Assembly: GCA_036514895.1 (NCBI GenBank)
Contig: DATBWH010000051.1
Location: 122-64,121 of the forward strand
DNA: 64,000 nucleotides
Origin: Candidatus Humimicrobiaceae bacterium
GTDB lineage: Bacteria > Actinomycetota > Humimicrobiia > Humimicrobiales > Humimicrobiaceae
Direction of reading: 5' to 3'
How positions within the stretch are numbered: the stretch's first letter is position 1; the number at the start of each line of letters is the position of its first letter. A program made the position numbers and the translations under genes. The notes under the pieces are model-generated. The model saw only the letters and a list, made by a program, of their open reading frames with translations. It was not told the origin of the DNA and ran no database searches. Shown piece after piece: positions 3,621 through 61,905 of this stretch.

Positions 3621-4712
3621 TTATTTTTTATTAATATAACCTGCTACCATATCTCCTACTTCCGTGGTACTGTAGCCCATTTTTCCTGCACTAAGACTTT
3701 TTAATTGGGTACAGGCATATGCTACGGCTTCCTCTATGGATTTTGCCGCTTCCTTTTCTCCCAGATGATTGAGCATCATTCTTCCGGCTTCTATAGCAGC
3801 CAGTGGATTTATTACATTCATGCCCGTATATTTTGGAGCGGAACCTCCTATGGGTTCGAACATGGAAGTCCCGTATGGATTTATATTTCCCCCTGCTGCG
3901 ATTCCCATACCTCCCTGGACCATTGCTCCCAGATCGGTGATTATGTCCCCAAACATATTGGTTGTGACCATGACATCATACCATTCCGGATTTTTTACGG
4001 TCCACATACAGGCAGCATCGATATGATTATAATCGGTCCGGATATCCGGATAATCTCTGGCCATTTCCATAAACGCTCTATACCAGAGATCACCGACATA
4101 AACAAGCACGTTTGTTTTATTGACCAGGGTGAGTTTTCCCGGTTTTCCCTCTTCTTTTCTTGCCCTGGCAAGATCAAAGGCATACTTAAGGCATCTGTCG
4201 ACCATCTGTCTGTCATAAACCATCACCTGGGTCGCAACTTCGTAAGGTGTTCCTTTTCTAGTTACCCCGCCCTGACCGGCATACATATCACCGGTATTTT
4301 CCCTTACGACTATAAAATCTATATCTTCCGGTTTTTTATCCTTTAATGGACAATCGACTCCAGGGTATAGTTTTACCGGTCTCAGATTTATATACTGGTC
4401 CAGCACAAATCTTAATTTAAGTAAAATGCCCACCTCTAAAACTCCCGGCGGCACATCAGGATGTCCTATAGCACCGAGATATATAGATTTGAATCTTTTC
4501 AGCTCTTCTGCAGCAGAATCCGGAAGTGTCTCCCCCGTTTTTAAGTACCTATCTCCTCCGAAATCATAATCGTGAAATTCAAAACTTATACCATGCTTTT
4601 TACCTGCAGCTTCAAGAACCTTTTTACCCTCCGCTATAACTTCCGGACCTGTACCGTCACCAGGTATAACTGCAATTTCATAATGGTTTGATTTAGCCAT
4701 ATTATTCCTCAT
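3621..4712 (-). CDS. Tartrate dehydrogenase/decarboxylase / D-malate dehydrogenase family (isocitrate/isopropylmalate DH superfamily)
   Basis: Motifs [38 protein letters not shown] and [12 protein letters not shown] agree closely with the TtuC/YeaU family. Confidence 0.85.
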
Positions 4713-10374: not shown

Positions 10375-10555
10375 AGAATTTACTAAATAACGAAAATAAT
10401 TTTAGTATTTTCAGAAAATTTTTGTTATAATTAAAAGACTAAATAATATAGACTACATTCGGATTGGCTAAAAGGATTAAAAGATATGTTATAAAGAAAC
10501 TTTTTTATTGGTGTAGAATATATATTGAAGATATAGAGAAATTAAAAAATAGGAG

Positions 10556-13021
10556 TTGAAAAAAATGATTGCCGAAGAAAAAAAACTTAATAAGGATATC
10601 GATAGAATAAATATACCGAAGGAGTTACCTCTCCTTTCATTAAAGAATAGTGTTGTATTTCCATTTCTGGCAACACCTCTGGTAGTAGGCAGAAAAAATT
10701 CTCTGGAAGCCGTTAAAAGTGCGTCCAGGGAACACAAGATCATAGTTGTAGTGGCACAAAAAGAAGAAAACAAAGAACTGGTGGGAAAAGAAGATTTATA
10801 TGAAGTCGGAACTGCCTGCGCCATAAAACAGGTTGCAAATATATCTGAGAACGAAATCAAATGTGTTGTCGAAGGAATTTCCAGGGTAAAAATAAAATAT
10901 TTTACTCAGACGGAACCTTATTTCAGAGCAGTTACCGAAGTTCTTAAGGAAATACCTTTGATCGAAGACAATGAAACAGAGAATCTCAATACGACTGTCA
11001 GAATGCAGGTTGAAAAATTTATTCAGCTGGGTATTCCACTGCCTACTGCTTTTGTAGTAGCAGCAACCAATATTTCCAAACCAGAAATCCAGACTGATTT
11101 ATTTGCTTCATATCTGCTTTCGAGCACAAAACAAAAGCAAAAGATACTGGAAGAAAGCGATCTTAAAGTAAGGTTAAGGAAATTAACAGAATATCTGGGT
11201 GAAGAATTAAAAAAATTCGAGGTTCAGTCTCAGATAAGAGATAAAGTCCAAAAAGAAGTCGGAAAAACCCAGAGAGAATATTATCTACGTCAGCAGCTTA
11301 AAGCAATAAAAAACGAACTTGGTGAATCTGATGAATCTATTGCATTGACCAAAGAGATCGATAAAAAATTGCAAAAGAAAAAGCTGCCAAAAGAAGCCAA
11401 AGATAAAGTATTAAAGGAAATAGAAAGGCTGGAAAATATCCCCAGCATGTCTCCTGAATATTCTTATGTGAGAACTTATGTAGAAACAATGCTGGATGTT
11501 CCCTGGTCCGAAAAAACCAAAGATATTCTGGATTTGAAAAAATCAAAGAAAATACTGGACGGGGATCATTACGATCTGGAAAAAGTAAAAACTCATATTC
11601 TTGATTACCTTGCAGTAAGAAAACTAAAGGGTAAAACTACGAAGGGCCCCATACTCTGCTTCGTTGGTCCTCCGGGTGTTGGTAAAACTTCTCTTGGGCA
11701 ATCCATAGCCAAGTCTCTTGGAAGAAAATTCATCAGAATGTCCATTGGAGGTATAAGAGATGAGGCCGAGATCAGGGGACACCGAAGAACATATGTAGGA
11801 GCACTTCCCGGAAGAATAATCCAGGGACTTACTCAGGTTGGAACAAATAACCCGGTCTTCATGCTGGATGAAGTCGATAAGGTGGGAGCTGATTATAGAG
11901 GCGACCCATCATCAGCATTGCTTGAAGTACTTGATCCCGAACAAAATAATTCATTCAGAGATCATTACCTTGAAGTACCATTCGATCTATCAAATGTGAT
12001 GTTCATAACAACAGCTAATATACTGGATACTATACATCCTGCATTGAGAGACAGAATGGAAATCATCGAGATACCCGGTTATAGTTCAGAGGAAAAGATA
12101 CACATAGCTGAAAAATTCCTGATTCCAAAGCAGTTAAAGGAGCAGGGCATTGAAAAATATAATGTGAAATTTGACAGTGAAGCTATATGCTTGATAATCG
12201 AGGAATATACCAGGGAAGCCGGTGTAAGAAACCTGGAGCGAGAAATAGCAAATATCTGTAAAAAAATCGCCAGAGAAATAGTTGAAGGAAAAGAGTATTC
12301 CAAAAATATAAGTGCCGAAAGGGTAAGAAATTATCTTGGTATTTCGAGAGTCCTGCCCAGTGAAATCGAAGACAAGAATAGAGTCGGAGTAGCAACTGGT
12401 CTGGCTTATACTCCGGTAGGCGGAGACATACTGCTTATTGAATCCACTCACTATAAGGGAAGCGGTGAATTGATACTTACCGGTAAACTTGGCGATGTGA
12501 TGCAGGAATCTGCAAAAGCAGCAATAAGCTATATACATTCAAGGGCAAAAGCTTTTGGAATAGACGATGATTTATTCAGTAAATCCGATATACATATTCA
12601 CGTCCCTGCAGGAGCAATACCAAAAGATGGTCCATCTGCTGGTGTAGCAATCACTTCGTCTCTGGTATCGACATTCACCGGAATACCAGTATTGAGAGAC
12701 GTGGGTATGACCGGAGAAATAACCCTGAGAGGAAGAGTTCTTCCAATCGGTGGGCTTAAAGAAAAATTACTGGCTGCAAAAAGAGCAGGATTGAGAAAAG
12801 TAGTATTACCTGAAAAAAATAAGAAGGACCTTGATGAGATACCCAAGAGTATATTAGATGGGTTAAAACTGGAATTTGTGGAAAATATCGATGATGTAAT
12901 CAAGCATACCCTGGAACGGTATCCTTCAAAACCGGATATCAAAGATAGTAAAGGTACGAAGATTTCAGGTGATGAATTAAAAATAGGAGAGCCCCAGGGA
13001 TTAGGGCCCACAATACAATAA
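10556..13021 (+). CDS. lon: ATP-dependent Lon protease
   Basis: Lon N-terminal domain, AAA+ Walker A (GPPGVGKTS), and a protease domain with the catalytic Ser in PKDGPSAG. Length 821 aa. Confidence 0.95.
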   Translation: MKKMIAEEKKLNKDIDRINIPKELPLLSLKNSVVFPFLATPLVVGRKNSLEAVKSASREHKIIVVVAQKEENKELVGKEDLYEVGTACAIKQVANISENEIKCVVEGISRVKIKYFTQTEPYFRAVTEVLKEIPLIEDNETENLNTTVRMQVEKFIQLGIPLPTAFVVAATNISKPEIQTDLFASYLLSSTKQKQKILEESDLKVRLRKLTEYLGEELKKFEVQSQIRDKVQKEVGKTQREYYLRQQLKAIKNELGESDESIALTKEIDKKLQKKKLPKEAKDKVLKEIERLENIPSMSPEYSYVRTYVETMLDVPWSEKTKDILDLKKSKKILDGDHYDLEKVKTHILDYLAVRKLKGKTTKGPILCFVGPPGVGKTSLGQSIAKSLGRKFIRMSIGGIRDEAEIRGHRRTYVGALPGRIIQGLTQVGTNNPVFMLDEVDKVGADYRGDPSSALLEVLDPEQNNSFRDHYLEVPFDLSNVMFITTANILDTIHPALRDRMEIIEIPGYSSEEKIHIAEKFLIPKQLKEQGIEKYNVKFDSEAICLIIEEYTREAGVRNLEREIANICKKIAREIVEGKEYSKNISAERVRNYLGISRVLPSEIEDKNRVGVATGLAYTPVGGDILLIESTHYKGSGELILTGKLGDVMQESAKAAISYIHSRAKAFGIDDDLFSKSDIHIHVPAGAIPKDGPSAGVAITSSLVSTFTGIPVLRDVGMTGEITLRGRVLPIGGLKEKLLAAKRAGLRKVVLPEKNKKDLDEIPKSILDGLKLEFVENIDDVIKHTLERYPSKPDIKDSKGTKISGDELKIGEPQGLGPTIQ

Positions 13022-23337: not shown

Positions 23338-23670
23338 CTATATTAATTCTTCTAATATTTTTTCTCTGAAAGTCTGATAATTTTTTGAATCATTAAGGTC
23401 CAGCAGTTCTTCACCGCAATCATAAAAGACCTGATCGTAATCAGCCAGACAAATATCCGAGATTTGTAAAAGCCATTTATTGTTAAGTTTCCAGCTTTTC
23501 AAATCATTTAACCAGTTTTTTTCACCGGCTGGTACATTATCTTTTATAAAATGATCAAGTTTTATTGATTTTTTTGAAACCTGCAGCAGAAAATCGACCT
23601 TATCGGTAAGAGACGAAATATTTGCTATGCTTAAATCCATGTCTCCGGCCACTAACATCTCCTCTGACAA
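23338..23670 (-). CDS. Hypothetical protein
   Basis: A 110-aa ORF between purB and the LCP gene with no recognisable motif. Confidence 0.35.
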   Translation of the reverse strand: MSEEMLVAGDMDLSIANISSLTDKVDFLLQVSKKSIKLDHFIKDNVPAGEKNWLNDLKSWKLNNKWLLQISDICLADYDQVFYDCGEELLDLNDSKNYQTFREKILEELI

Positions 23671-23764: not shown

Positions 23765-24589
23765 TTATTTCAGATAATCATTTAAAAAACTTATAACTTC
23801 TTCTTTGTCTGCAATTAAATAGCTTATGCCATCTATATTAGCTGGTTCAGTAGGTATCGTAACCTGGTTCATATCCTTACTGGAAAATAATAACACAAAT
23901 CCTATAGAACCAAAATCCCATATCGTAAAATCAGATCTGGTTTCTGCATTCAAGACCCTAATGATCTGAGGAGCTTTCGTGACTATTGAAAAATTAAGCT
24001 TCTGTCTTATTATTTCGCTGAGTAAATACTTCTGTCTGTTCACTCTATCAAAATCGGATCCTGATGTTGATGATCTGTCCCTGACAAATGCCAGTGACTG
24101 CTCCCCGTTCATCGTATAAGTCCCGGGATTAAAATCGGTACCGGATAAGGGATCATGAAGAGGTTCCGCTACTGTTATCTCGATTCCCCCCAGTATATCT
24201 ATGATTTCCTTGAAACCATTGAAATTTACAACCATTACACTGTCGATTTCGATATCGGTTAGTTCATATATCTCCTGTTTTATCATTTCATCTCCGCCAT
24301 ATTTATAAGCTGCATTGATCTTGTTCCATCCATGACCTTCCAGATCTACCCGGGTATCCCTGGGAATAGAAATTAGGCTATCTTTCTCTCCCCAGCTGCT
24401 GATGTGGTAGATTATGATAGTGTCGGTCAAACTATTGAACTCATTGCTTTCCTCTCTTTCGTCCATACCAAGAAGCAGTATATCTTTTCCGCCAGGATTT
24501 AGATTTATAAGAGAGATAATCACAAATAGCAGAATGATCACTACTAAAATAACCAGTATACTAATAAAACAACCCTTAGTCTTACTCAT
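23765..24589 (-). CDS. LytR-CpsA-Psr (LCP) family cell-wall polymer transferase
   Basis: An N-terminal TM helix is followed by the LCP core (ILLLGMDER...SIPRDTRVDLEGHGWNKINAAYKYGG). Confidence 0.85.
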   Translation of the reverse strand: MSKTKGCFISILVILVVIILLFVIISLINLNPGGKDILLLGMDEREESNEFNSLTDTIIIYHISSWGEKDSLISIPRDTRVDLEGHGWNKINAAYKYGGDEMIKQEIYELTDIEIDSVMVVNFNGFKEIIDILGGIEITVAEPLHDPLSGTDFNPGTYTMNGEQSLAFVRDRSSTSGSDFDRVNRQKYLLSEIIRQKLNFSIVTKAPQIIRVLNAETRSDFTIWDFGSIGFVLLFSSKDMNQVTIPTEPANIDGISYLIADKEEVISFLNDYLK

Positions 24590-26436: not shown

Positions 26437-26850
26437 TTAAGTTATTTCAATTTTTTCTTTTTTCAGATTTTCCTTTTTGCTTTTCTCGAGATTATTTTTT
26501 TCCGGAATACTTACATGGTCGAACTCCAGACTTGCCGCTACTATATCAGCCGTGATATTAGTGATATTGTATTTCTTACCTTCTTTGTTTTCCCAGCTTC
26601 TAAGGTTCAAATGACCGCTTATAAGAACTCTGTCTCCTTTTTTCAATGCAGCTGCACAATTTTCTGCAAGACCGCTCCAGGTAGTGACATTAAAAAAATC
26701 AACCATTTCGGACTCTTTTCCATTTTTATCGGTCCATTTTTTATTTACAGCAAGACCCATCTCGGTAATAGCTATTCCTTCATTTGTATATTTGATTTCC
26801 GGATTGCGGGTAAGATTCCCCAGCAAATATATATTATTTACATAATTCAT
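26437..26850 (-). CDS. ssb: Single-stranded DNA-binding protein paralog lacking the acidic C-terminal tail (SsbB-like)
   Basis: A clear OB-fold SSB, judged by eye against E. coli SSB (VNNIYLLGNLTRNPEIKY; WSGLAENCAAALKKGDRVLISGHLNLRSWENKEG). Length 137 aa. There is no Gly/Pro linker and no DDDIPF-type tip. Confidence 0.85.
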   Translation of the reverse strand: MNYVNNIYLLGNLTRNPEIKYTNEGIAITEMGLAVNKKWTDKNGKESEMVDFFNVTTWSGLAENCAAALKKGDRVLISGHLNLRSWENKEGKKYNITNITADIVAASLEFDHVSIPEKNNLEKSKKENLKKEKIEIT

Positions 26851-26906
26851 AAATAAATCCTCCTGTCTTATAAGTTATTATCTAAATATGATCTTAATAA
26901 AGATTT

Positions 26907-27335
26907 TCAATACTCAAATTTATAGGTCTTGCAATAACCGAATCGATCATCCCATGGGTATATGACATTAGTTTTAGAAGTCGATCTGATGCTGCTGCTT
27001 TTTGTAATAAACTTGTCTATTAATACAAAATCGAGTGTCTTTTCTACAGTAACAATTACATCGTCATAGTCATAACTACATTCAACAAGAATACAATTGT
27101 TCTTTCGAGCCAATTCTTCGGCAATCATATTGCAATAAGAATCCTCAAAAAATAACAGGTTTTGTGCAACAGCAAGCGAAACGGCATCGGAAGCATTTTT
27201 TGTTTCCTCCCGTGCTATGAAAATCTGGCATAAGTCGAAAATAAGAAGAAACAAAATTGAAAATATGATTACCGCAGCCAGCGCGAAAAAAGATATATTA
27301 CCCCTATTTTGTGTATTTAAATCTTTTAGTAGCAT
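26907..27335 (-). CDS. TadE/TadG-like pseudopilin (Tad-locus minor pilin-like protein)
   Basis: The N-terminal hydrophobic segment and the TKNASDAVSLAVAQNL motif resemble the Tad/TadG N-terminal domain. It overlaps the upstream tadE. Confidence 0.5.
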   Translation of the reverse strand: MLLKDLNTQNRGNISFFALAAVIIFSILFLLIFDLCQIFIAREETKNASDAVSLAVAQNLLFFEDSYCNMIAEELARKNNCILVECSYDYDDVIVTVEKTLDFVLIDKFITKSSSIRSTSKTNVIYPWDDRFGYCKTYKFEY

Positions 27336-27784
27336 TCCATCCTCATATTACTCTTAGCTTTTATAATACTATCCTTTCCCGAAAATATTCCCTGCAAACC
27401 AGTAATATCTGCATTTTTGTATATGACAGTCACCTCAATCATATCCCCGACTTTTCTGGAAGCCCTGCTTTCCGGAGAGACTTTTATTTCAAGCATATTC
27501 TGATCCAGACCAGAACAGACTTCTTTTATGCATGCATATGCTTCCTGATCGGAATTGGTAGTAGCAATCACTCTTGCTCCTTCACGAGCTGCCTGCTCCA
27601 ATATATTTTTCTGATAGATCAGTAATCCAAAATGGGAAACAGCTAAAATTATTAAAATCAATAGAGGAATAATCAAAATAAACTCCAGTGAAGCCTGACC
27701 ATCCGGATCATGTCCTGATATCTTTGATTTATTCTTTCTTTTATTTATATCCATAATGATTTTTAACATAAAACTGTTTCCCAT
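27326..27784 (-). CDS. tadE: TadE-like pilus assembly protein
   Basis: The N-terminal G-QASLEFILIIPLLILIIL motif is characteristic of TadE/TadF. Confidence 0.7.
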   Translation of the reverse strand: MGNSFMLKIIMDINKRKNKSKISGHDPDGQASLEFILIIPLLILIILAVSHFGLLIYQKNILEQAAREGARVIATTNSDQEAYACIKEVCSGLDQNMLEIKVSPESRASRKVGDMIEVTVIYKNADITGLQGIFSGKDSIIKAKSNMRMECY

Positions 27785-27824
27785 TCTTTTTATTTGCAGA
27801 GAATAATTTACTCTTCATTGGGTT

Positions 27825-28016
27825 TTAAACCATCGAAGCTATTTTCCCAAATACCTTTGAAATGACATCGATTATCAGTGGTTTGCCTACTGCTATGAGG
27901 ATTGCGCTTATTATTCCTGCAATTACCGTAACCAGTGCATACTCGAGAGTAGATTGTCCTTTCTGGCACCAGAATTTTATTCTAATGCCACTCTTTTTTA
28001 TTTTTATTTTACTCAC
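27825..28016 (-). CDS. flp: Flp-family type IVb pilin precursor
   Basis: A 63-aa protein with a basic leader, then G/QSTLEYALVTVIAGIISAILIAV (Flp G-xxxxEY processing motif plus a hydrophobic helix). The RBS GGAGG lies upstream. Confidence 0.7.
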   Translation of the reverse strand: MSKIKIKKSGIRIKFWCQKGQSTLEYALVTVIAGIISAILIAVGKPLIIDVISKVFGKIASMV

Positions 28017-28261
28017 CCCCCTCCATAAATATAAAAGTTAAGTTTTGAATCTTACACCTCCTTTTATTAATAAGTAATACCTTTGTGCATTTGTGCATAT
28101 ATCCATAACGATAATTTACCATATTTATTCAATTGTGTAAATACATAATTGATAATTTATTAAAATTTTCATAAAGATTTATTATGAAACCCTATATTTT
28201 TTACTTTTGTATTAATTAATGTATTAATAATTATATATTATTATTATTTAAGAGAATTCTC

Positions 28262-28472
28262 TTGACATTAATAATATAATGTATTAACATTCCTATGTAA
28301 TCTGCAATTTTTAGTTTTATTGAAAATTTAAATTTTATTAGTAATAGAGGCTAAGACTTACATTTCGTTATTGGGCACTTTGAAATGTAACGAGCCAGTG
28401 GTGCAACCGGCTATTGCTTTTTTATTGGAAAAAAGTTTGCCATCTAGCCTCTATGTTAGATGGCTTTTTTTT
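28262..28472 (+). promoter_or_regulatory. Candidate cis-regulatory leader with terminator/antiterminator alternative pairing upstream of the CAP-domain gene
   Basis: A possible -35 TTGACA at 28262. A terminator hairpin GCCATCTA-GCCTCTATGT-TAGATGGC plus T8 lies at 28439-28472. The upstream segment TAGAGGCTA (28345-28353) is exactly complementary to TAGCCTCTA in the 5' arm and loop of the terminator. An additional 9-bp hairpin is TTACATTTC/GAAATGTAA. Confidence 0.45.
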
Positions 28473-28483
28473 GGGATAAAACA

Positions 28484-29221
28484 ATGAAAAACGGGATTAA
28501 AAAAATATTAATAATATCACTGATTACAGCATTATTAGCATCAGTTATCTTTTTCTTTGCTTTTACCTATCAAACTGCAAACATAAGCACCAGCTTTACA
28601 GAAACCAGTAACTACAAAGCAGAAGATTTAGGGAAAACCGGCATAGTCCAGGAAAATGTATCCGTAAAAGATAATATTGCAGATACAGCAACAATACTGG
28701 CAAAGATATCAGACAACCTTGACAAGGAGATTGACAATATACGCTCGGATTATAATGCTGAAGTTCTTGGAAGTGCCGCAGCAAGCCAGACTGCCGAGGC
28801 TGCTGCTCCGGTAGCCTCTATTGCCAACTTAAGTGATTATGAAGCAGCAGTTCTTAACCTTATCAATAATATAAGAGTATCAAATGGACTTGGTGCACTG
28901 CAGTCAAATCAAATACTGACAGATATAGCCAGATATAGATGCAGTGACATGATAAATAATTCTTACTTTTCACATTATATGGCTGACGGCAGGAACATCT
29001 TCAATATACTTGGCGAAAATGGTGTCTCTTATGTAAATGCCGGAGAAAACCTGGGACAATCCACACCTGCTTCTAATGGGACTCCCGAAGCATTCGCAAA
29101 TGCATGGATGCAAAGTTCTACCCATAAGGCAAATATCTTGAGGTCCGTATATTCCAAGATTGGAATCGGAGTAGTCGATGGTGGAGATAGAAGAGTAGTA
29201 GCAACTGTATTTATGAATTAA
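28484..29221 (+). CDS. Secreted CAP/SCP/YkwD-domain protein
   Basis: A signal-peptide-like N-terminus (MKNGIKKILIISLITALLAS) and a C-terminal CAP domain (ARYRCSDMINNSYFSHY...HKANIL...YSKIGIGV). The ORF track starts at an ATG at 28460 inside the terminator hairpin. The ATG at 28484 is the more plausible start. Confidence 0.8.
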   Translation: MKNGIKKILIISLITALLASVIFFFAFTYQTANISTSFTETSNYKAEDLGKTGIVQENVSVKDNIADTATILAKISDNLDKEIDNIRSDYNAEVLGSAAASQTAEAAAPVASIANLSDYEAAVLNLINNIRVSNGLGALQSNQILTDIARYRCSDMINNSYFSHYMADGRNIFNILGENGVSYVNAGENLGQSTPASNGTPEAFANAWMQSSTHKANILRSVYSKIGIGVVDGGDRRVVATVFMN

Positions 29222-29256
29222 CTGTTTAAATCATATAAGTTTACGGACGCCTAGAC

Positions 29257-29295
29257 AAACACCCCGGATATTATTTATCCGGGGTGTTTAATTTT
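29257..29295 (+). terminator. Rho-independent terminator (AAACACCCCGGA...TCCGGGGTGTTT + T-run)
   Basis: A 12-bp perfect stem followed by AATTTTTAT, between the convergent CAP and tadC genes. Confidence 0.75.
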
Positions 29296-29309
29296 TATAG
29301 TCAAAAAAT

Positions 29310-30197
29310 CTAAAACTGCAAAAAATTTCCTCCCAGCGAAAATAAAAGCGGTCCGCCTACCAGGATCATAAAAGATGGCAAGATCAGAAAAACCAGCGGG
29401 AACAATGTCAATACTGTTATTCTTCTGATTTTTCTTTCAAGATTCTGATAAGCCTGGAACTTTATATGCCTGGATTTCTGTTTCAATATTTCGTTTATAG
29501 AAGAACCATACTTCTCTGCCTGGATAAGGAGAAAAATAAAACTTTTAAAATCTTCCGAAATACTCCTGTCCATAAGGTTTTTATACGCTTGAAGTTTACC
29601 GATGCCAATATCGATGTCTTTTATAAAATTAGATAGTTCAATACAAATTCTTCCCTTATACTTTTCGGCTATGATTTTCATTGCATTATAAATATTCTGC
29701 CCCGACAATGTCGCTACTGCCAGCAGATCTACTACATACGGTAAATCCCTCTCTATTTCATTTTTTCTTACTTTCTTGAAATTGCCAAGCAGCAGATTCG
29801 GAACAAAATAACCTGTCACCCCTGTGATAATACCCAATAGACCGGGACCTATCAGACTACTGCCGGATAGACTTCCCGCAGTGAAAAATAAAACAAATAA
29901 GATCACTTTATAGCCCATAAAAGTATCCAGAGTAAGGGATATTTTATTTTCATGTTCCAATAATCTTAAGAGTTCCTTATTTTCTTTTTTGACCTCGAAC
30001 CAGTGCCTGTTAATCAGAGATCTTCCAATTCTAAAAGCAATCGAATTCATTTTGTTTATAATTGCTGTAAAAAACTTTTTCTTCCCGGAATAATCTTTAT
30101 TTTTCGCGGTCCTGCGGTAACTTCTGGATTTAATAATATGAAATATAACCGAACATAGAAATATATAATACGATAATATGATTAAATATATAAACAT
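29310..30197 (-). CDS. tadC: Type II secretion system F-domain protein TadC
   Basis: A 295-aa polytopic protein with a T2SS-F-like domain. It is adjacent to tadB. Confidence 0.75.
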   Translation of the reverse strand: MFIYLIILSYYIFLCSVIFHIIKSRSYRRTAKNKDYSGKKKFFTAIINKMNSIAFRIGRSLINRHWFEVKKENKELLRLLEHENKISLTLDTFMGYKVILFVLFFTAGSLSGSSLIGPGLLGIITGVTGYFVPNLLLGNFKKVRKNEIERDLPYVVDLLAVATLSGQNIYNAMKIIAEKYKGRICIELSNFIKDIDIGIGKLQAYKNLMDRSISEDFKSFIFLLIQAEKYGSSINEILKQKSRHIKFQAYQNLERKIRRITVLTLFPLVFLILPSFMILVGGPLLFSLGGNFLQF

Positions 30198-30209
30198 ATC
30201 TAATTCCTG

Positions 30210-31091
30210 TTATTTTGGTGTACCTATTATTTTTTTCATTATAACTATTCCAGCGATTTCCATAACCCCTCCTACAAAAAGCAGAATTATCCCTATGCCG
30301 GTTGAAAAAAAATCAAGTATGGCTTTATTCATGAAGACACATAATATGATCAGCACGATAACAGGAAATAAAGAAATAATATTCCCGGAATATCTGCTCT
30401 GTAGACTCATTGTATCGGTCTGTGATTTTAATTTCAGGTTATGACGTACAGTATCGGCTATGCTGGCCAACATAGATATCAGATCTCCCCCTATTTTATT
30501 ATTTATCTTCAATGAACAAACAAGAAGGTCGACTTCCCTGCTCCCGCACTTTTGTGAAAACCTATTCAAGACTTCGTCCAGCGTAGAATTGAGTTCCAGA
30601 TCATTTACCACTTCCACAAGATAAGTATTAAGCGGGTCCTTAAACCACCCGATAGAATCTTTGAATATACTTCTTACCGTTTTTCCTGCTTTTAGCATCA
30701 TTGTCATATTGCTTATGAATTCAAGAAGCTGACCATGGAGCAAGTCTTTTCTTTTTTCTTCAAGTCCCTTTAATAAGTCCAGAATATAGATTTCCAGACA
30801 TACTCCAATAAATAAACTAAAGATAAAATTTCCGCACAATAAGTAAACAGTCAGTGTAAGGATAATAAAAATGATTATCGTAAGTATCTTTCTTCTGGTC
30901 TTATATATTTTCGTAAGAAATTTGATTACTCCGGATCTCCCGTAACTCCTGTTCTCCCTTAAGGTTCTGGCCTTCGGAACAAATATTGGAGCAATTCTTT
31001 TCAATCCTTGAAACATACATAGAATTGCCAGGATAAAGGTAAAAGAAATAATTATTTCATCCCAAATTTTCATACTCAAATTTATAATCAA
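30210..31091 (-). CDS. tadB: Type II secretion system F-domain protein TadB
   Basis: A 293-aa polytopic protein with a T2SS-F-like domain. It overlaps the cpaF stop. Confidence 0.75.
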   Translation of the reverse strand: MIINLSMKIWDEIIISFTFILAILCMFQGLKRIAPIFVPKARTLRENRSYGRSGVIKFLTKIYKTRRKILTIIIFIILTLTVYLLCGNFIFSLFIGVCLEIYILDLLKGLEEKRKDLLHGQLLEFISNMTMMLKAGKTVRSIFKDSIGWFKDPLNTYLVEVVNDLELNSTLDEVLNRFSQKCGSREVDLLVCSLKINNKIGGDLISMLASIADTVRHNLKLKSQTDTMSLQSRYSGNIISLFPVIVLIILCVFMNKAILDFFSTGIGIILLFVGGVMEIAGIVIMKKIIGTPK

Positions 31092-32349
31092 GCCCCCCGC
31101 TTTTTATTCTATTGATAAATGCCGGTACATAGCCTGTATAAACGAACTCCGTACTGCCGCCGGTGTTACTTCTTGCTTCATTATTTCCATCCTGGTATCT
31201 GAAAATATCTTTGACTTCCAGGATGGTATTACTGCCAATTGATTCATTTTTATTTATAAGCTCGCTTATTTTCAATAGCATCCTTTTGCCATTCTTTAAT
31301 TTTCCCAGATGGATTATCAAATCAATGGATGATGCTATCATCCTCCTGGCAGTTGAAGGAGTCAGATTCAGCTTTGACATCAGTATCATCGTCTCCAATC
31401 TGCTGACCAGATCTTTGGGTGAATTGGAATGAACCGTGGTCATCGAACCACTGTGACCCGTGTTCATCGCCTGAAGAACATCTACAGCTTCTGCTCCCCT
31501 GATTTCTCCCACTATGATCCTATCCGGTCTCATTCTCAAAGAGTTCCTAACCAGATCCCTGATAGTTATTTCTCCTTTTCCTTCAAGATTCGGATGCCTG
31601 CTCTCTAGCTTGATTATATGGGGTAAATTCAAATTTAATTCCAGTGTTTCCTCTATAGTGACGATTCTCTCATCGGGCGGGATGAAATTTGAGATAACAT
31701 TCAAAAATGTTGTTTTTCCTGTAGATGTAGCGCCACTGACTATTATATTCAACCTGCTCTTTACACAGATCTCAATAAAATCAGCTATTTTTTTGTTTAT
31801 ACTTCCGGATTTTTCCAGACTATCAATGTCTATTATATTTTTTTTGAATTTCCTTATGGTAACTACTATGTCGTTTACTGTTACCGGACTTAAAACTACA
31901 TTGATCCTTGACCCGTTTTTAAGCCTTGCATCCACCATAGGGGAACTCTCATCCAATCTGAGGCCGAGAGGGCTTAATATTTTATCGACCAGGTTTCTGA
32001 TATGATTATTGTCCCTGAAAATAATATTTGTTTTCCTTATTGCATCATTTTCTTCGATATAGACCTGGTCAAAATTGTTTATCATAATTTCAGTTATTTT
32101 TTTATCATTTATGAGGAAGCTGACGGGCCCGAAACCAAAGCTGTCTTCATTGATTTCTCCTGCCAGCCTGTAAATTTCTTTCTGGCTGATTATGATCTTT
32201 TTTTCGTCTGCTATTTCTTTTAAATATTTTTCGATTCTCCTGAGCCTCTCTTCAGGCAAGAATTTGTTCAAATCTTCCGCTTTGATCTTTTTTGATATCT
32301 TCTTACTTAAATAATTTAAAATATCCTTATCATTAAAGATCGAACTCAT
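31057..32349 (-). CDS. cpaF: Tad pilus secretion ATPase CpaF/TadA
   Basis: Walker A VSGATSTGKTT and a T2SS/T4SS ATPase core (IVGEIRGAEA). Length 430 aa. Confidence 0.9.
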   Translation of the reverse strand: MSSIFNDKDILNYLSKKISKKIKAEDLNKFLPEERLRRIEKYLKEIADEKKIIISQKEIYRLAGEINEDSFGFGPVSFLINDKKITEIMINNFDQVYIEENDAIRKTNIIFRDNNHIRNLVDKILSPLGLRLDESSPMVDARLKNGSRINVVLSPVTVNDIVVTIRKFKKNIIDIDSLEKSGSINKKIADFIEICVKSRLNIIVSGATSTGKTTFLNVISNFIPPDERIVTIEETLELNLNLPHIIKLESRHPNLEGKGEITIRDLVRNSLRMRPDRIIVGEIRGAEAVDVLQAMNTGHSGSMTTVHSNSPKDLVSRLETMILMSKLNLTPSTARRMIASSIDLIIHLGKLKNGKRMLLKISELINKNESIGSNTILEVKDIFRYQDGNNEARSNTGGSTEFVYTGYVPAFINRIKSGGLDYKFEYENLG

Positions 32350-33110
32350 TTATTCAAATCCTCATATATTTTTTTTGAAAAAGCAGAAATGTTACTCACA
32401 ATTCTAAGATTGTAACTAAAAATGGAATCAGGCCCTTTATTCAGCATTAAAAATTCTATATCCCTGTCATATGGAATAAAAGCATTAACCGGGTAGCTTA
32501 AAATTGTGTTTATACCTGTGAGCGAAACAGCAGGCCTTATATTGAATTTATTTATCGTTATATCAAAATCATAAGAGAATTCATCAATAATTATACTTTT
32601 GACCAGCACATTTAGATTATTTACTGAAATAAAGTCCGGCAGGGAAATAAAAATGTATTTATCGACTCTGTCTTTTAGTCTGAATTTATCCTGAGTAAAT
32701 AAATAATAAGGAAAATCCACACAGATTATATCAAAATGCTCCTTGAGAATATCCAAAAGCTTCTCAAAATATTCTTTACAAAAAATCTTATTTTTCTCGA
32801 TTTTTATGGGTGGTAATATCAGATTCAGACTGTTCTTTAAATTGATCACAAGTCTTTTTAGAATAGAGTCATCCATCTCATTCATGACTTCTTCAATATC
32901 TCCCAGGTCCCTATAACTATCATCAGTAAGATTGAAAATCAGCCTGCTGTCTCTTTTTCCTATATTTAGATCAAGCAGTAATATATTCTTTGTAGTCTCT
33001 CTGGCAAAATAAGTCGAGACGCAATAAGTCATAAAACTACAGCCGCAGCCTCCTTTGCTTCCGGTAAATAGTATGATCTTTGACTCTTCTCCATTCAGTT
33101 TATTCATCAT
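32346..33110 (-). CDS. CpaE/TadZ-like ParA/MinD-fold protein with degenerate P-loop
   Basis: The motif ILFTGSKGGCGCS sits where a deviant Walker A (KGGxGKT) is expected. Its position between cpaB and cpaF matches tadZ/cpaE. Confidence 0.6.
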   Translation of the reverse strand: MMNKLNGEESKIILFTGSKGGCGCSFMTYCVSTYFARETTKNILLLDLNIGKRDSRLIFNLTDDSYRDLGDIEEVMNEMDDSILKRLVINLKNSLNLILPPIKIEKNKIFCKEYFEKLLDILKEHFDIICVDFPYYLFTQDKFRLKDRVDKYIFISLPDFISVNNLNVLVKSIIIDEFSYDFDITINKFNIRPAVSLTGINTILSYPVNAFIPYDRDIEFLMLNKGPDSIFSYNLRIVSNISAFSKKIYEDLNK

Positions 33111-33169
33111 TTATTTCCTTTCATAATTTTGAATTAATATAATACCGATCGAAAACAAAAGTCTTTACA

Positions 33170-33916
33170 TCAAAGATTATCCCCGGGACAAACCGATATA
33201 TTTATGACTCCTCTCTCCAGCGCTAAGAACACCTCTTCAGCTTCTGTCTTGCTGAGATAAAAAGTTATTATAAGAAGGCTTTCATAATCAGAGTCGAGCC
33301 GGCTATCGGTGACCAGGGGATCTACAAGAAAGTTTCCCGTACCATTTTCATTTTTTGAATAATTATCTTCAGGACTACTGCCAATCAGTATTATTTCTTT
33401 TTCCGATATGACCGTTTTCGAAAAAAGACTGCCGCTTTCCTCCTCATAATAAGTGGATATCAAATCGATACAGTCTCCCTCCTCCAGCAGTGACTTGTCC
33501 CCATAAAAGCTAACGGGGATACTGACTGCCCTTAAGTCATTAGGAATGTATGATGAGAAATCAAGATCAAAACCGCCTTCGGAATCCATGCCTTCCAATA
33601 TATCTTCTGTAATGATCTCTCCTTTTGAAATGTCGTTTATTACTTCTTTTCCTATAATTCTATCCTTATCCATAATGAATTTTTCACTGAATACATTCCC
33701 CGTTATTTTTTGTTCTTCAATTGATTCACCTGTGATCTCGTCTCCTTTTTTAAGATCGACCCTTGCCACAAATATAGGATTATAATCAATGTTTTCCGGG
33801 ATCTTTTCTTTTAAGCCGCTTATATACCAGAAAATGATTATTCCTCCGAGAATAGCAATGATCAGAAAAATAATGCTGATTATTTTTTGTTTTACGATCA
33901 AAGATATTCTATTCAT
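33170..33916 (-). CDS. cpaB: Flp pilus assembly protein CpaB/RcpC (SAF domain)
   Basis: An N-terminal TM helix is followed by a SAF-like segment (VARVDLKKGDEITGESI). It is the first gene of the tad cluster. Confidence 0.7.
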   Translation of the reverse strand: MNRISLIVKQKIISIIFLIIAILGGIIIFWYISGLKEKIPENIDYNPIFVARVDLKKGDEITGESIEEQKITGNVFSEKFIMDKDRIIGKEVINDISKGEIITEDILEGMDSEGGFDLDFSSYIPNDLRAVSIPVSFYGDKSLLEEGDCIDLISTYYEEESGSLFSKTVISEKEIILIGSSPEDNYSKNENGTGNFLVDPLVTDSRLDSDYESLLIITFYLSKTEAEEVFLALERGVINISVCPGDNL

Positions 33917-34502: not shown

Positions 34503-34862
34503 TCAGGATTCAAAACTAATCAAATCACCTGGCATTAAAGAGGTTTTTTCTATTGTCCCTGAATTAAATTCCAATACGAAAAAGGCATTTTTAATAAATG
34601 GAGTTGCTCTAAATGGCTTGATGCCATAATAAATGGCTAAAACTTGATTCTTTTTATCTAAAAACACGACATCTATACTGTATCTCATCCAGAAAGTATG
34701 GATACCGTTACAATTTTCAATAAGAAATCCTTCTCTGTCCCTGAGTCTTCTCCTCGTAATTAATCCAAACAATTTATCAAAAAAGGTATTTGCTTCTATT
34801 ACTTCAGCAGCAATTAACTCTTTGCTGGTTTTTTCAATCAAATTGATTTTAACTGCCTTCAA
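34503..34862 (-). CDS. DUF192 domain protein
   Basis: The pattern FFDKLFGLITRR...GIHTFWMRYSIDVVFLDKKNQV matches the DUF192 (COG1430) signature. Confidence 0.6.
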   Translation of the reverse strand: MKAVKINLIEKTSKELIAAEVIEANTFFDKLFGLITRRRLRDREGFLIENCNGIHTFWMRYSIDVVFLDKKNQVLAIYYGIKPFRATPFIKNAFFVLEFNSGTIEKTSLMPGDLISFES

Positions 34863-40362: not shown

Positions 40363-40441
40363 TGGTCGGGATGGGGGGATTTGAACCCCCGGCCTCAGCG
40401 TCCCGAACGCTGCGCGCTAAACCAAGCTGCGCTACATCCCG
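40363..40441 (-). tRNA. tRNA-Pro (anticodon CGG)
   Basis: The minus-strand sequence CGGGATG TA GCGC...CAGCG TTCGGGA CGCTG...GGGGG TTCAAAT CCCCC CATCCCG A CCA folds as a cloverleaf. The anticodon loop is UUCGGGA, with G37 and an encoded CCA. Confidence 0.85.
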
Positions 40442-52523: not shown

Positions 52524-52600
<77 letters not shown>

Positions 52601-60094: not shown

Positions 60095-61462
60095 CTATAC
60101 TTTTGGAAGTTTTTCCAGGGATTCTTTTATCTTTTCTGTAGGATATTCGTAATCTTCAAGATTCCCATCCAGATAACTATCATATGCTCCAAGATCGAAA
60201 TGCCCGTGCCCGCTGAAATTAAAGGCTATGACTTTCTCTTCTCCGGTTTCCTTGCATTTCATGGCTTCATCTATAGCTGCCTTTATTGCATGTGCTGTTT
60301 CAGGAGCCGGGATGATTCCTTCTGTCCTGGCAAAGGTAACAGCTGCTTCAAACACAGGATTCTGGTGAAGTGCAATTGCCTCAATGACCTTCTCGTGGTA
60401 AAGCAAACTTACCTGGGGTGCCATGCCGTGGTATCTAAGTCCTCCCGCATGTATTCCGGCGGGAATAAAATCATGACCCAGAGTATACATTTTTGCTATA
60501 GGACCTGTTTTTGCAGTATCACCATAATCATAAGCAAATGGACCCTTGGTCAATGATGGGCAGGCAATGGGCTCAACGGCTATGATCCTGATTTTTTTGC
60601 CGCTCAATTTATCGGGTATAAATGGAAAAGCAAATCCGCCGAAGTTACTGCCGCCGCCAACACAACCGATTAATATATCGGGATATTCGCCCAGTTTTTC
60701 AAACTGCTTTTTAGTTTCAAGTCCTACAATCGATTGATGAAGGATTACATGATTCAGCACACTGCCGAGTGAATATTTTGCATCTCCGCCGCTTTTAACC
60801 GCATCTTCTACAGCTTCGCTTATAGCTATACCCAGACTTCCGGGAGAATTGGGATCCTGAGCCAGTATATTCTTACCGGCATCCGTCAAATTTGAAGGAG
60901 AAGGATGAACAGTTGCGCCCCACAGATTCATCATGCTTTTCCTGTATGGTTTTTGATCATAGCTTACCCTGACCATATAAACCGTACAACCTAATCCAAA
61001 AAGATTGCATGCGAATGCAAGTGCGCTTCCCCATTGTCCCGCACCAGTTTCGGTAGCAAGTCTTTTTACTCCTTCTTTTTTATTATAATAGGCCTGAGCC
61101 AAGGCGGTATTAGGTTTATGGCTCCCTGCAGGGCTGACGCTCTCATTTTTAAAATATATTCTGGCCGGTGTATCAAGATATTTTTCTAATCTTTCAGCTC
61201 TTACAAGAGGCGTCGGCCTCCACATTCTATAAATATTTACAAGCTCTTCAGGAATATCGATAAATCGATCCATGCTTACTTCCTGCATGATAAGTGACAT
61301 TGGAAACAAGATCGAAAGATCATCCGGTGTCAGAGGTTTACAGGTCTGCGGATGCAAAGGCGGGTCCAGAGGTTTTGGCAGATCAGGATTTATATTGTAC
61401 CATTGTCTCGGCATTTCCTTTTCTGTGAGTAATGTTTTTTTATCTTTTTCATTTTGATCCAT
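60095..61462 (-). CDS. trpB: Tryptophan synthase beta-chain paralog, TrpB2 type
   Basis: A 455-aa long-form TrpB with the PLP lysine region ([15 protein letters not shown]) and GGGSNFGG motifs. No trpA is adjacent. Confidence 0.9.
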
Positions 61463-61905
61463 TTATGTTCTCCTCTCTTTATTTTTATAATTTCCTGACA
61501 ACAATTTCAAAATTTCTTTATTGGTATTTTTCTTAACTTCGCCATAATAAAATTTTTATTTTCATCACCTTTCCTTTCCATAAACAAAAAACCTCTCCAT
61601 CACTACATAATATTGTAGAGACGAGAGGTTTAATTCCCGCGGTGCCACCCTACTTTGCCCTAAAATCAATATAATTATTGATTCCGGAACACACTTAAAA
61701 TATTTCAGATACTTTAAATACCCTATCCTCTGGTAACGGAGGAAGCCGGCCTGACTTACTCTCTAATAAAAGATTTGAGCCAGACACCTCACAGACCCAT
61801 TCAGACACCAGCTTAGCAACCGCATTCTCAGCTTCAGCGGCTCTCTGTATGCTGCATTCAGTGCTTACTATCTCTGGTCACAGGTTTTGTTGGAAATATT
61901 TAATT
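61463..61905 (-). promoter_or_regulatory. T-box riboswitch leader upstream of trpB2
   Basis: The minus-strand RNA contains AAAGUAGGGUGGCACCGCGGG (T-box consensus AAnnnGGGUGGnACCGCG; plus-strand 61636-61655). A terminator follows directly, with an AACCUCUC/GAGAGGUU stem plus U6 (plus-strand 61585-61630). Confidence 0.65.

Follow-up and report, generated by a model that had tools for sequence, protein, structure and literature searches.

A single-stranded DNA-binding protein paralog is the terminal gene of the pilin unit of a Tad/Flp pilus locus in uncultured Actinomycetota

Results

Genes of the Tad/Flp locus

We analysed a 64-kb stretch of DNA (64,000 nucleotides, hereafter the window) from a Candidatus Humimicrobiaceae bacterium (contig DATBWH010000051.1), in which a gene for a single-stranded DNA-binding protein (SSB) lies at the end of a Tad/Flp pilus locus on the minus strand. 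A previous reading of the same letters, to which we refer as the original prediction, had described a secretin-less Tad/Flp cluster followed by a tail-less SSB and had proposed a pilus for DNA uptake. Here we show that the 137-amino-acid SSB is a paralog, specific to the lineage, of the replicative SSB, and that its gene is the fixed terminal member of a flp-tadE-tadE-ssb unit.

The open reading frames (ORFs) of the window were searched with Pfam and NCBIfam (TIGR and NF) profiles, from which all bit scores given here are taken, with cut-offs where stated. All genes named in the original prediction (cpaB, a cpaE-like gene, cpaF, tadB, tadC, flp, two tadE-like genes and ssb) were recovered where it had placed them on the minus strand. 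The assembly unit begins with a cpaB/rcpC-like gene (33170-33916) with a match to SAF (33.7 bits), a sub-threshold match to RcpC (23.9 bits) and a score of 66.1 bits against TIGR03177 (cut-off 71); the gene is conserved in relatives. It is followed by a gene for a cpaE/tadZ-like MinD/ParA-type ATPase (32346-33110) that gives only weak AAA_31, CbiA and MinD matches and is called cpaE-like on the basis of its position and its conservation in relatives (42-93% identity). The pilus ATPase gene cpaF/tadA (31057-32349) matches T2SSE with 196.7 bits and TIGR03819 with 309 bits (cut-off 373). The platform proteins TadB (30210-31091) and TadC (29310-30197), the latter encoded by the gene that closes the assembly unit in the window, score 38.5 and 43.8 bits against T2SSF (PF00482, cut-off 25.2).

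The first gene of the pilin-ssb unit encodes an Flp-type prepilin of 63 amino acids (27825-28016) with the motif KG/QSTLEY followed by about 20 hydrophobic residues. Its matches to Pfam models are sub-threshold (Flp_Fap, 16.4 bits with a cut-off of 32.2; DUF4244, 19.3 bits) and an ortholog in the relative L007 matches PF04964 weakly, yet Flp is the most conserved tad product among relatives (64-97% identity). We use Lnnn as labels for the tad/ssb or rpsF/ssb contexts of relatives and Pnnnn for proteins from the SSB search described below. A tadE pseudopilin gene (27326-27784; G/QASLEF; PF07811, 54.8 bits, above cut-off) overlaps by 10 nt with a gene for an Rv3654c-type TadE-like minor pilin (26907-27335), which is above the cut-off for PF13400 (28.4 bits) and reaches 49.2 bits against TIGR03816 (cut-off 50.95). 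The unit ends with ssb (26437-26850; PF00436, 101.4 bits, cut-off 26; TIGR00621, 114.1 bits, cut-off 53.95). With a CpaF/TadA ATPase, two T2SSF platform proteins, an Flp prepilin and TadE/TadF-type pseudopilins, the locus has these recognised components of a Tad/Flp (type IVc) pilus.

The reported lack of a secretin and of TadV in the cluster extends to the whole window: no secretin domain (RcpA/CpaC) was found in the 64 kb and no A24 prepilin peptidase (TadV) among its ORFs. Absence of a secretin from the window is expected of a monoderm, and an LCP gene is present at 23765-24589. A single-membrane envelope, as had been proposed, is probable, and the host is probably a monoderm member of the Actinomycetota. 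An unlinked tadV is typical for actinobacterial tad loci (PMC4322843).

The tadE-ssb junction in relatives

The ssb gene begins 56 bp past the last pseudopilin gene, as the original prediction had stated. The spacer (26851-26906, minus strand) between the Rv3654c-type gene and ssb holds an AGGAGG ribosome-binding site only. An independent promoter or terminator could have set ssb apart from the tad genes; no promoter-like or terminator-like site at consensus level was found within the 56 bp, and a weak actinobacterial-type -10 element is possible in this AT-rich DNA. When the spacers of 25 relatives were aligned by eye, the ribosome-binding site was the sole conserved element.

The short SSB recurs in the tad loci of related genomes. 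In a scan with one genome per GTDB species, in which copies at least 51% identical to the window SSB were counted, ssb directly followed the Rv3654c-type tadE gene in 39 of 39 species-level genomes, and the same order was seen in 11 further loci from metagenome contigs and contigs of metagenome-assembled genomes (MAGs). The tadE-ssb gap measured 8-156 bp, with a median of 45.5 bp. A profile search with divergent tail-less SSBs (112-118 amino acids, 43-51% identity to the window SSB) added three more loci: in L064, from a lineage with split purS/purQ/purL, ssb lies behind a tadE-like gene after a gap of 16 bp; in L065, the two genes are joined by a TAATG stop-start overlap; and in L066, they overlap by 8 nt and the downstream context differs (Ldh).

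The tadE-ssb junction was unbroken in every locus that we examined, although both flanks have been rearranged repeatedly. Upstream of the tad genes, a trp operon can replace the DUF192 and TPR genes. Within the locus, a CAP gene with its riboswitch, described below, has been inserted between tadC and flp, and L010 has in addition an insert of unrelated genes there that spans 5 kb (sigma factor, 6PGD, toxin-antitoxin). Downstream of ssb, relatives carry ychF, DUF951, toxin-antitoxin pairs, a 6-kb insert or the Ldh context. The adjacency of tadE and ssb is far beyond chance. We also considered whether ssb is functionally tied to the genes for a methyltransferase (MTase), Rex and LCP that lie downstream, and dismissed this, as that junction is variable.

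In deeper relatives, ychF lies directly downstream of the tad-linked ssb (L008, at 10534-11866, L037, L040, L046-L048, L050 and L065), and L008 carries a DUF951 gene as well. Genes for YchF and DUF951 are neighbours of rpsF-ssb-rpsR in Firmicutes. Their presence beside ssb may be a trace of the source of the duplicated gene, or a coincidence.

Some relatives have an altered cpaF. The gene is seemingly frameshifted in two species, represented by L001, L002 and L029 (4496-5787) and by L021 (4587-5850), with flp-tadE-tadE-ssb intact; the break in L001 is near residue 170 and might give two polypeptides. In a third species, L017 (1624-2751), an internal in-frame deletion appears to have removed the ATPase core and the pilin-ssb unit is again intact. 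In L034 (3828-5869), a gene for a 529-amino-acid large serine recombinase (Resolvase, Recombinase and Zn ribbon) adjoins the upstream side of a 3' fragment of cpaF; the 10 kb upstream contain neither cpaB nor cpaE nor the 5' part of cpaF, and flp-tadE-tadE-ssb is intact. A mobile element seems to have integrated in the pilus ATPase gene, which recalls comK or sigK interrupted by prophages.

The tad-linked SSB has a conserved OB fold and no acidic tip

The window SSB consists of an OB fold (residues 1 to about 110) and a lysine-rich tail of 27 residues. Solved SSB structures, including SsbA and SsbB of Bacillus subtilis, match it at E values of 1e-18 to 1e-36, and W38, F52/F53, W58 and W86 align with the ssDNA-stacking residues W40, W54, F60 and W88 of the E. 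coli protein. The C-terminus reads ...KKENLKKEKIEIT and, in a second excerpt, ...EKSKKENLKKEKIEIT. It has no acidic-hydrophobic DDD(I/L)PF tip, the element through which SSBs engage replication and repair partners; this bears out the original prediction on this point, and such a tip was found in none of more than 40 tad-linked copies.

Tails in the group of the window SSB comprise about 27-31 residues with a lysine-rich end of the form KK[ED]K.K.... The SSBs of L042, L044 and L045 have low-complexity linkers of 90-140 residues with the conserved end DLAADY[AS]LEV, and those of L050 and the 112-118-amino-acid forms have no tail at all. The tails in L046, L047 and L049 end in other, differing acidic stretches. 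A lysine-rich patch is present in most tails of tad-linked SSBs; the tail evolves fast and the OB fold is frozen.

For one pair of organisms, inferred from a shared assembly and a shared sequencing run, OB-domain identity was 73.6% between the tad-linked SSBs and 75.0% between the canonical ones. The paralog is hence under about the same constraint as the replicative protein. Identity among relatives falls to 35-50% for the adjacent TadE proteins. These values show that the paralog is under strong purifying selection.

The tad-linked SSB is a paralog

An exhaustive HMMER search against 1.84 billion representative proteins was used to find related SSBs, in which the tad-linked family collapsed to few clusters. 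The best single-OB matches beyond this family were P0130 (47% identity, highest score), P0143 (50%) and P0144 (50%; tail-less, 112 amino acids). P0130 and P0143 end in ...DFTDDDIPF, and P0393, a close relative of P0144, is tad-linked. In Actinomycetota MAGs, genes of the P0130 family stand in the order mscS-rpsF-ssb-rpsR-DUF2232-rplI-dnaB. The C-terminus of this canonical family (P0130/P0339) is DF(S/T)D(E/D)DIPF.

Both kinds of SSB occur together. Assembly GCA_964610315.1 carries a canonical rpsF-ssb-rpsR copy (P0339, ending in DFSDEDIPF) on contig CAZSVM010000002.1 and a tad-linked copy (L027, 85% identical to the window SSB) on contig CAZSVM010000011.1. Likewise, both kinds were found in the Sequence Read Archive run SRR5210834 (tad-linked L009, canonical L070). 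Since a canonical and a tad-linked copy are present in one MAG, the tad-linked SSB is a paralog and not the sole ssb. The original prediction had named a sole ssb among the findings that would speak against it; the rpsF-linked copy with the end DEDIPF in CAZSVM01 argues for paralogy, as far as the metagenomic binning holds. No rpsF or rpsR was found among the ORFs of the window.

In a simple neighbour-joining tree of the short OB domain, the tad-linked copies formed one clade beside the canonical SSBs of the lineage and other actinobacterial SSBs. Such a topology is in keeping with a single old duplication, after which the tip was lost.

A riboswitch-controlled gene divides the locus

The original prediction had treated the locus as one block. 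Its genes do lie on one strand, but the block is interrupted: a plus-strand gene, its riboswitch and a terminator had been overlooked between tadC and flp. The gene encodes a secreted protein of the CAP/YkwD family (28460-29221, plus strand; CAP, 58.3 bits; TIGR02909, 99 bits). The gene does not belong to the tad set, and the deeper relatives L008 and L064 lack it. Upstream of it lies a c-di-GMP-II riboswitch aptamer (28337-28421, plus strand; RF01786, 73.5 bits, gathering score 53.5), followed by a hairpin with a T-run (28439-28464, plus strand; hairpin scan) that is likely the terminator-like expression platform of the riboswitch. The CAP gene is predicted to be under the control of this riboswitch. 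The riboswitch-CAP pair was present in all five CAP-carrying relatives scanned (L001, L004, L010, L013 and L026) and still adjoins tadC in L010, where flp-ssb is 5 kb away.

A bidirectional terminator-like hairpin (29257-29289; 14 pairs, 7 of them G-C) is located between the convergent tadC and CAP genes. Together, the CAP gene and this hairpin divide the tad genes of the window into two transcription units, cpaB-cpaE-cpaF-tadB-tadC and flp-tadE-tadE-ssb. In deeper relatives without the CAP insertion, the nine genes from cpaB to ssb form one tight operon; in L064 all gaps are 24 bp or less, including the one between tadE and ssb. A riboswitch or leader governing flp-ssb was considered and rejected, as the c-di-GMP-II aptamer is on the opposite strand and serves the CAP gene. 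Rfam scans revealed no RNA element upstream of flp on the minus strand.

Genomic setting

The window, with a G+C content of about 37%, derives from the chromosome of an uncultured bacterium within the Actinomycetota. Its genes have close homologs in MAGs of Ca. Hydromicrobium, Ca. Humimicrobiales/Humimicrobiaceae, Ca. Calidifonticultor and organisms named 'Actinomycetota bacterium'. Apart from the tad locus, it is made up of housekeeping genes (purine and folate synthesis, ftsH, tilS, rho, prfA, lon, Rex, LCP ligase). An origin of the locus from a prophage or plasmid was discarded, as a scan of viral contigs gave two matches only, at 35% identity, and the surroundings are housekeeping genes.

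A DUF192 (COG1430) gene at 34503-34862 on the minus strand was noticed for its proximity to cpaB in relatives. In the window, a TPR gene separates it from cpaB. L064, a distant relative, has it (3976-4338) immediately upstream of cpaB, and L050 (1985-2266) about 2 kb upstream. The DUF192 gene may represent a so far overlooked accessory component of the tad system.

An ORF of 110 amino acids (23338-23670, minus strand), situated between the LCP gene and purB, has no Pfam match; most relatives examined have a gene of about 104 amino acids called in this place, so the ORF is conserved. In addition, a T-box leader (61614-61890, minus strand; 106 bits) precedes a gene for a pyridoxal phosphate-dependent enzyme (60095-61462), and tRNA genes are located at 40366-40441 and 52527-52600.

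Discussion

A possible role in DNA uptake and its alternatives

The best explanation of the conserved tadE-ssb unit appears to us to be that the Tad pilus serves DNA uptake and that the SSB paralog is an analogue of SsbB, a reading by analogy to which we give slightly less than even credence. The ssb gene would be co-transcribed with the pilin genes, and its translation would be coupled to that of the last tadE gene in some lineages. Assembly of the pilus would then go along with filling the cell with an SSB that is blind to the usual partners. The pilus could capture extracellular DNA as in Micrococcus luteus, which needs both of its tad clusters for transformation (PMC4322843), in agreement with what the original prediction had said of this organism. 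A ComEA/ComEC-type route would deliver one strand into the cytoplasm, where the paralog could coat and store it, kept off the partners of the replisome by its missing tip. The lysine-rich tail, standing in the place of the acidic tip, might act as a contact site, which is speculative. A precedent for such a store is SsbB of Streptococcus pneumoniae, which protects and stores internalised ssDNA and whose tail is dispensable for storage (PMC3128108).

Several points weigh against DNA uptake. A search of the ORFs in the 64-kb window, the stretch covered here, revealed neither comEA nor comEC nor dprA. Co-expression and function are read from the genes of uncultured organisms, and the presence of both SSBs in the same genome relies on metagenomic binning. 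As all linked genomes descend from one ancestor, the association is a single evolutionary event kept by descent. Tip-less SSB paralogs are common in Actinomycetota, one example being Streptomyces SsbB, which acts in chromosome segregation. Moreover, the wider neighbourhood MTase-Rex-LCP-purB is also largely syntenic throughout the clade, cpaF is seemingly disrupted in some species that retain ssb, so that the SSB may not strictly depend on the motor, and the c-di-GMP-II riboswitch and secreted CAP gene within the locus hint at a setting on surfaces or in biofilms, in line with the classical adhesion role of Tad pili. The tip-less paralogs, the synteny, the seemingly disrupted cpaF and the riboswitch with its CAP gene, together with an OB fold conserved like that of the replicative copy, as expected of a core cellular role, would suit a paralog with another cytoplasmic function (chromosome segregation, stress or recombination) that rides on the operon of an adhesion or biofilm pilus. 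We regard this main alternative as possible but less likely than DNA uptake: tadE-ssb is the sole adjacency that was never broken amid repeated rearrangement of the flanks, the gaps are too short for a terminator plus a promoter, the stop-start overlaps imply coupled expression and, among the known functions of Tad pili, DNA uptake alone needs an ssDNA-binding protein.

Two further explanations were weighed against DNA uptake. A Tad-like machine and its SSB could take part in conjugation-like transfer or release of extracellular DNA, with the SSB coating outgoing ssDNA. The NCBIfam name of TIGR03819 is 'TadA family conjugal transfer-associated ATPase', VirB11/TrbB models match as well, and conjugative plasmids often carry ssb genes. 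Export is nevertheless very unlikely, as neither the window nor the related loci were found to contain a relaxase, a coupling protein, an oriT-like element or any further transfer gene, the region is chromosomal and of housekeeping character with no plasmid or phage signal beyond the 35% viral match, and every part of the system is a standard Tad pilus component. Least probable of all is that the tad-linked gene is the only, replicative SSB of its genome, displaced from rpsF-rpsR. Its high OB-fold conservation would agree with this, as would ychF (and DUF951 in L008) directly downstream in deeper relatives, recalling the ychF-rpsF-ssb-rpsR order of Firmicutes. We reject it because one MAG and one sequencing run that yield tad-linked copies also contain the canonical rpsF-ssb-rpsR-rplI-dnaB locus, with its SSB ending in DEDIPF; in addition, tail-less copies of 112-118 amino acids are incompatible with the recruitment of partners by a replicative SSB.

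Implications for the clade

If the DNA-uptake reading is extended to the deep-branching, low-GC clade as a whole (Ca. Humimicrobiales, Ca. Hydromicrobium and relatives), the operon could be a self-contained unit of a DNA-capturing filament and a cytoplasmic ssDNA reservoir, the Tad pili could be primarily transformation machines and the conserved lysine patch of the tail a new motif for targeting a partner or the membrane in place of the otherwise universal acidic tip. This extension is conceivable, if on balance questionable. Tad/Flp pili are usually taken as adhesion organelles, and the tadE-ssb pair provides gene-neighbourhood evidence for ssDNA handling in dozens of species. If the link is functional, natural transformation would extend to a large uncultured part of the Actinomycetota, tadE-ssb would be a simple genomic marker to predict DNA-uptake pili, and the paralog would be an independently evolved counterpart of the Firmicutes SsbB with a basic tail in place of the acidic tip. 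If it is not, the unit would still illustrate neatly for how long two genes of an operon can stay adjacent. Full-text literature searches and the M. luteus tad papers yielded no report of a link between ssb and tad genes, and a search for the class name Humimicrobiia gave no title that seemed relevant.

Comparison with known systems

The window SSB is related in sequence to SsbB (YwpH) of B. subtilis (PDB 3vdy, match at E 1e-18) and resembles it as a short single-OB paralog that coexists with a canonical rpsF-linked SSB and has a proposed role in coating incoming ssDNA. The SsbB of Bacillus is tail-less, and B. subtilis ssbB is a separate ComK-regulated gene outside the pilus operon. In contrast, the tad-linked ssb is the last cistron of the pilin operon and its product has a lysine-rich tail. 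The two are not orthologs (NF005242, 60.6 bits with a cut-off of 189). SSBs of the window type cluster with actinobacterial SSBs, consistent with a duplication independent of that which gave B. subtilis SsbB.

In S. pneumoniae, ssbB is transcribed as its own late com gene. The likeness to the S. pneumoniae protein lies in the proposed role, as this SsbB is a competence-induced paralog that stores ssDNA; it differs by its acidic tail EEEELPF, so that the tail-less architecture, which the original prediction had thought to be shared by the SsbB of Streptococcus, is not found there (PMC3128108). Again, the window SSB is not an ortholog (56.8 bits against NF005579, cut-off 169). The score against the model NF004512 for SsbB of Streptomyces coelicolor and Mycobacterium is lower still (33 bits, cut-off 215). 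The latter proteins are second SSBs with an aberrant or missing tip that are not tad-linked and have been proposed to act in chromosome segregation during sporulation.

As regards the pilus, tad-1 and tad-2 of M. luteus share with the window locus that they are actinobacterial and secretin-less, have an unlinked tadV and encode Flp and TadE-like minor pilins; M. luteus is the only monoderm in which Tad pili are experimentally needed for DNA uptake (PMC4322843). It lacks TadZ, whereas the window locus has a CpaE-like gene. The papers on tad-dependent transformation of M. luteus (including PMC4322843) mention no ssb or helicase gene. The models TIGR03816 and TIGR03819 of the Rv3654c-Rv3660c-type actinobacterial cluster are the best for the minor pilin and the ATPase of the window, both just under cut-off. 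An older TIGRFAMs name of these models is 'helicase/secretion neighbourhood', which reflects the conserved link of that cluster to a nucleic-acid enzyme, a DEAH-box helicase. The nucleic acid-related partner in the Rv3654c-Rv3660c type is a neighbouring helicase, whereas in the window it is an SSB within the operon. Judged by its genes, the locus appears to represent an as yet unreported arrangement, in which a standard monoderm actinobacterial Tad system is equipped with a built-in, independently evolved SsbB-like paralog.

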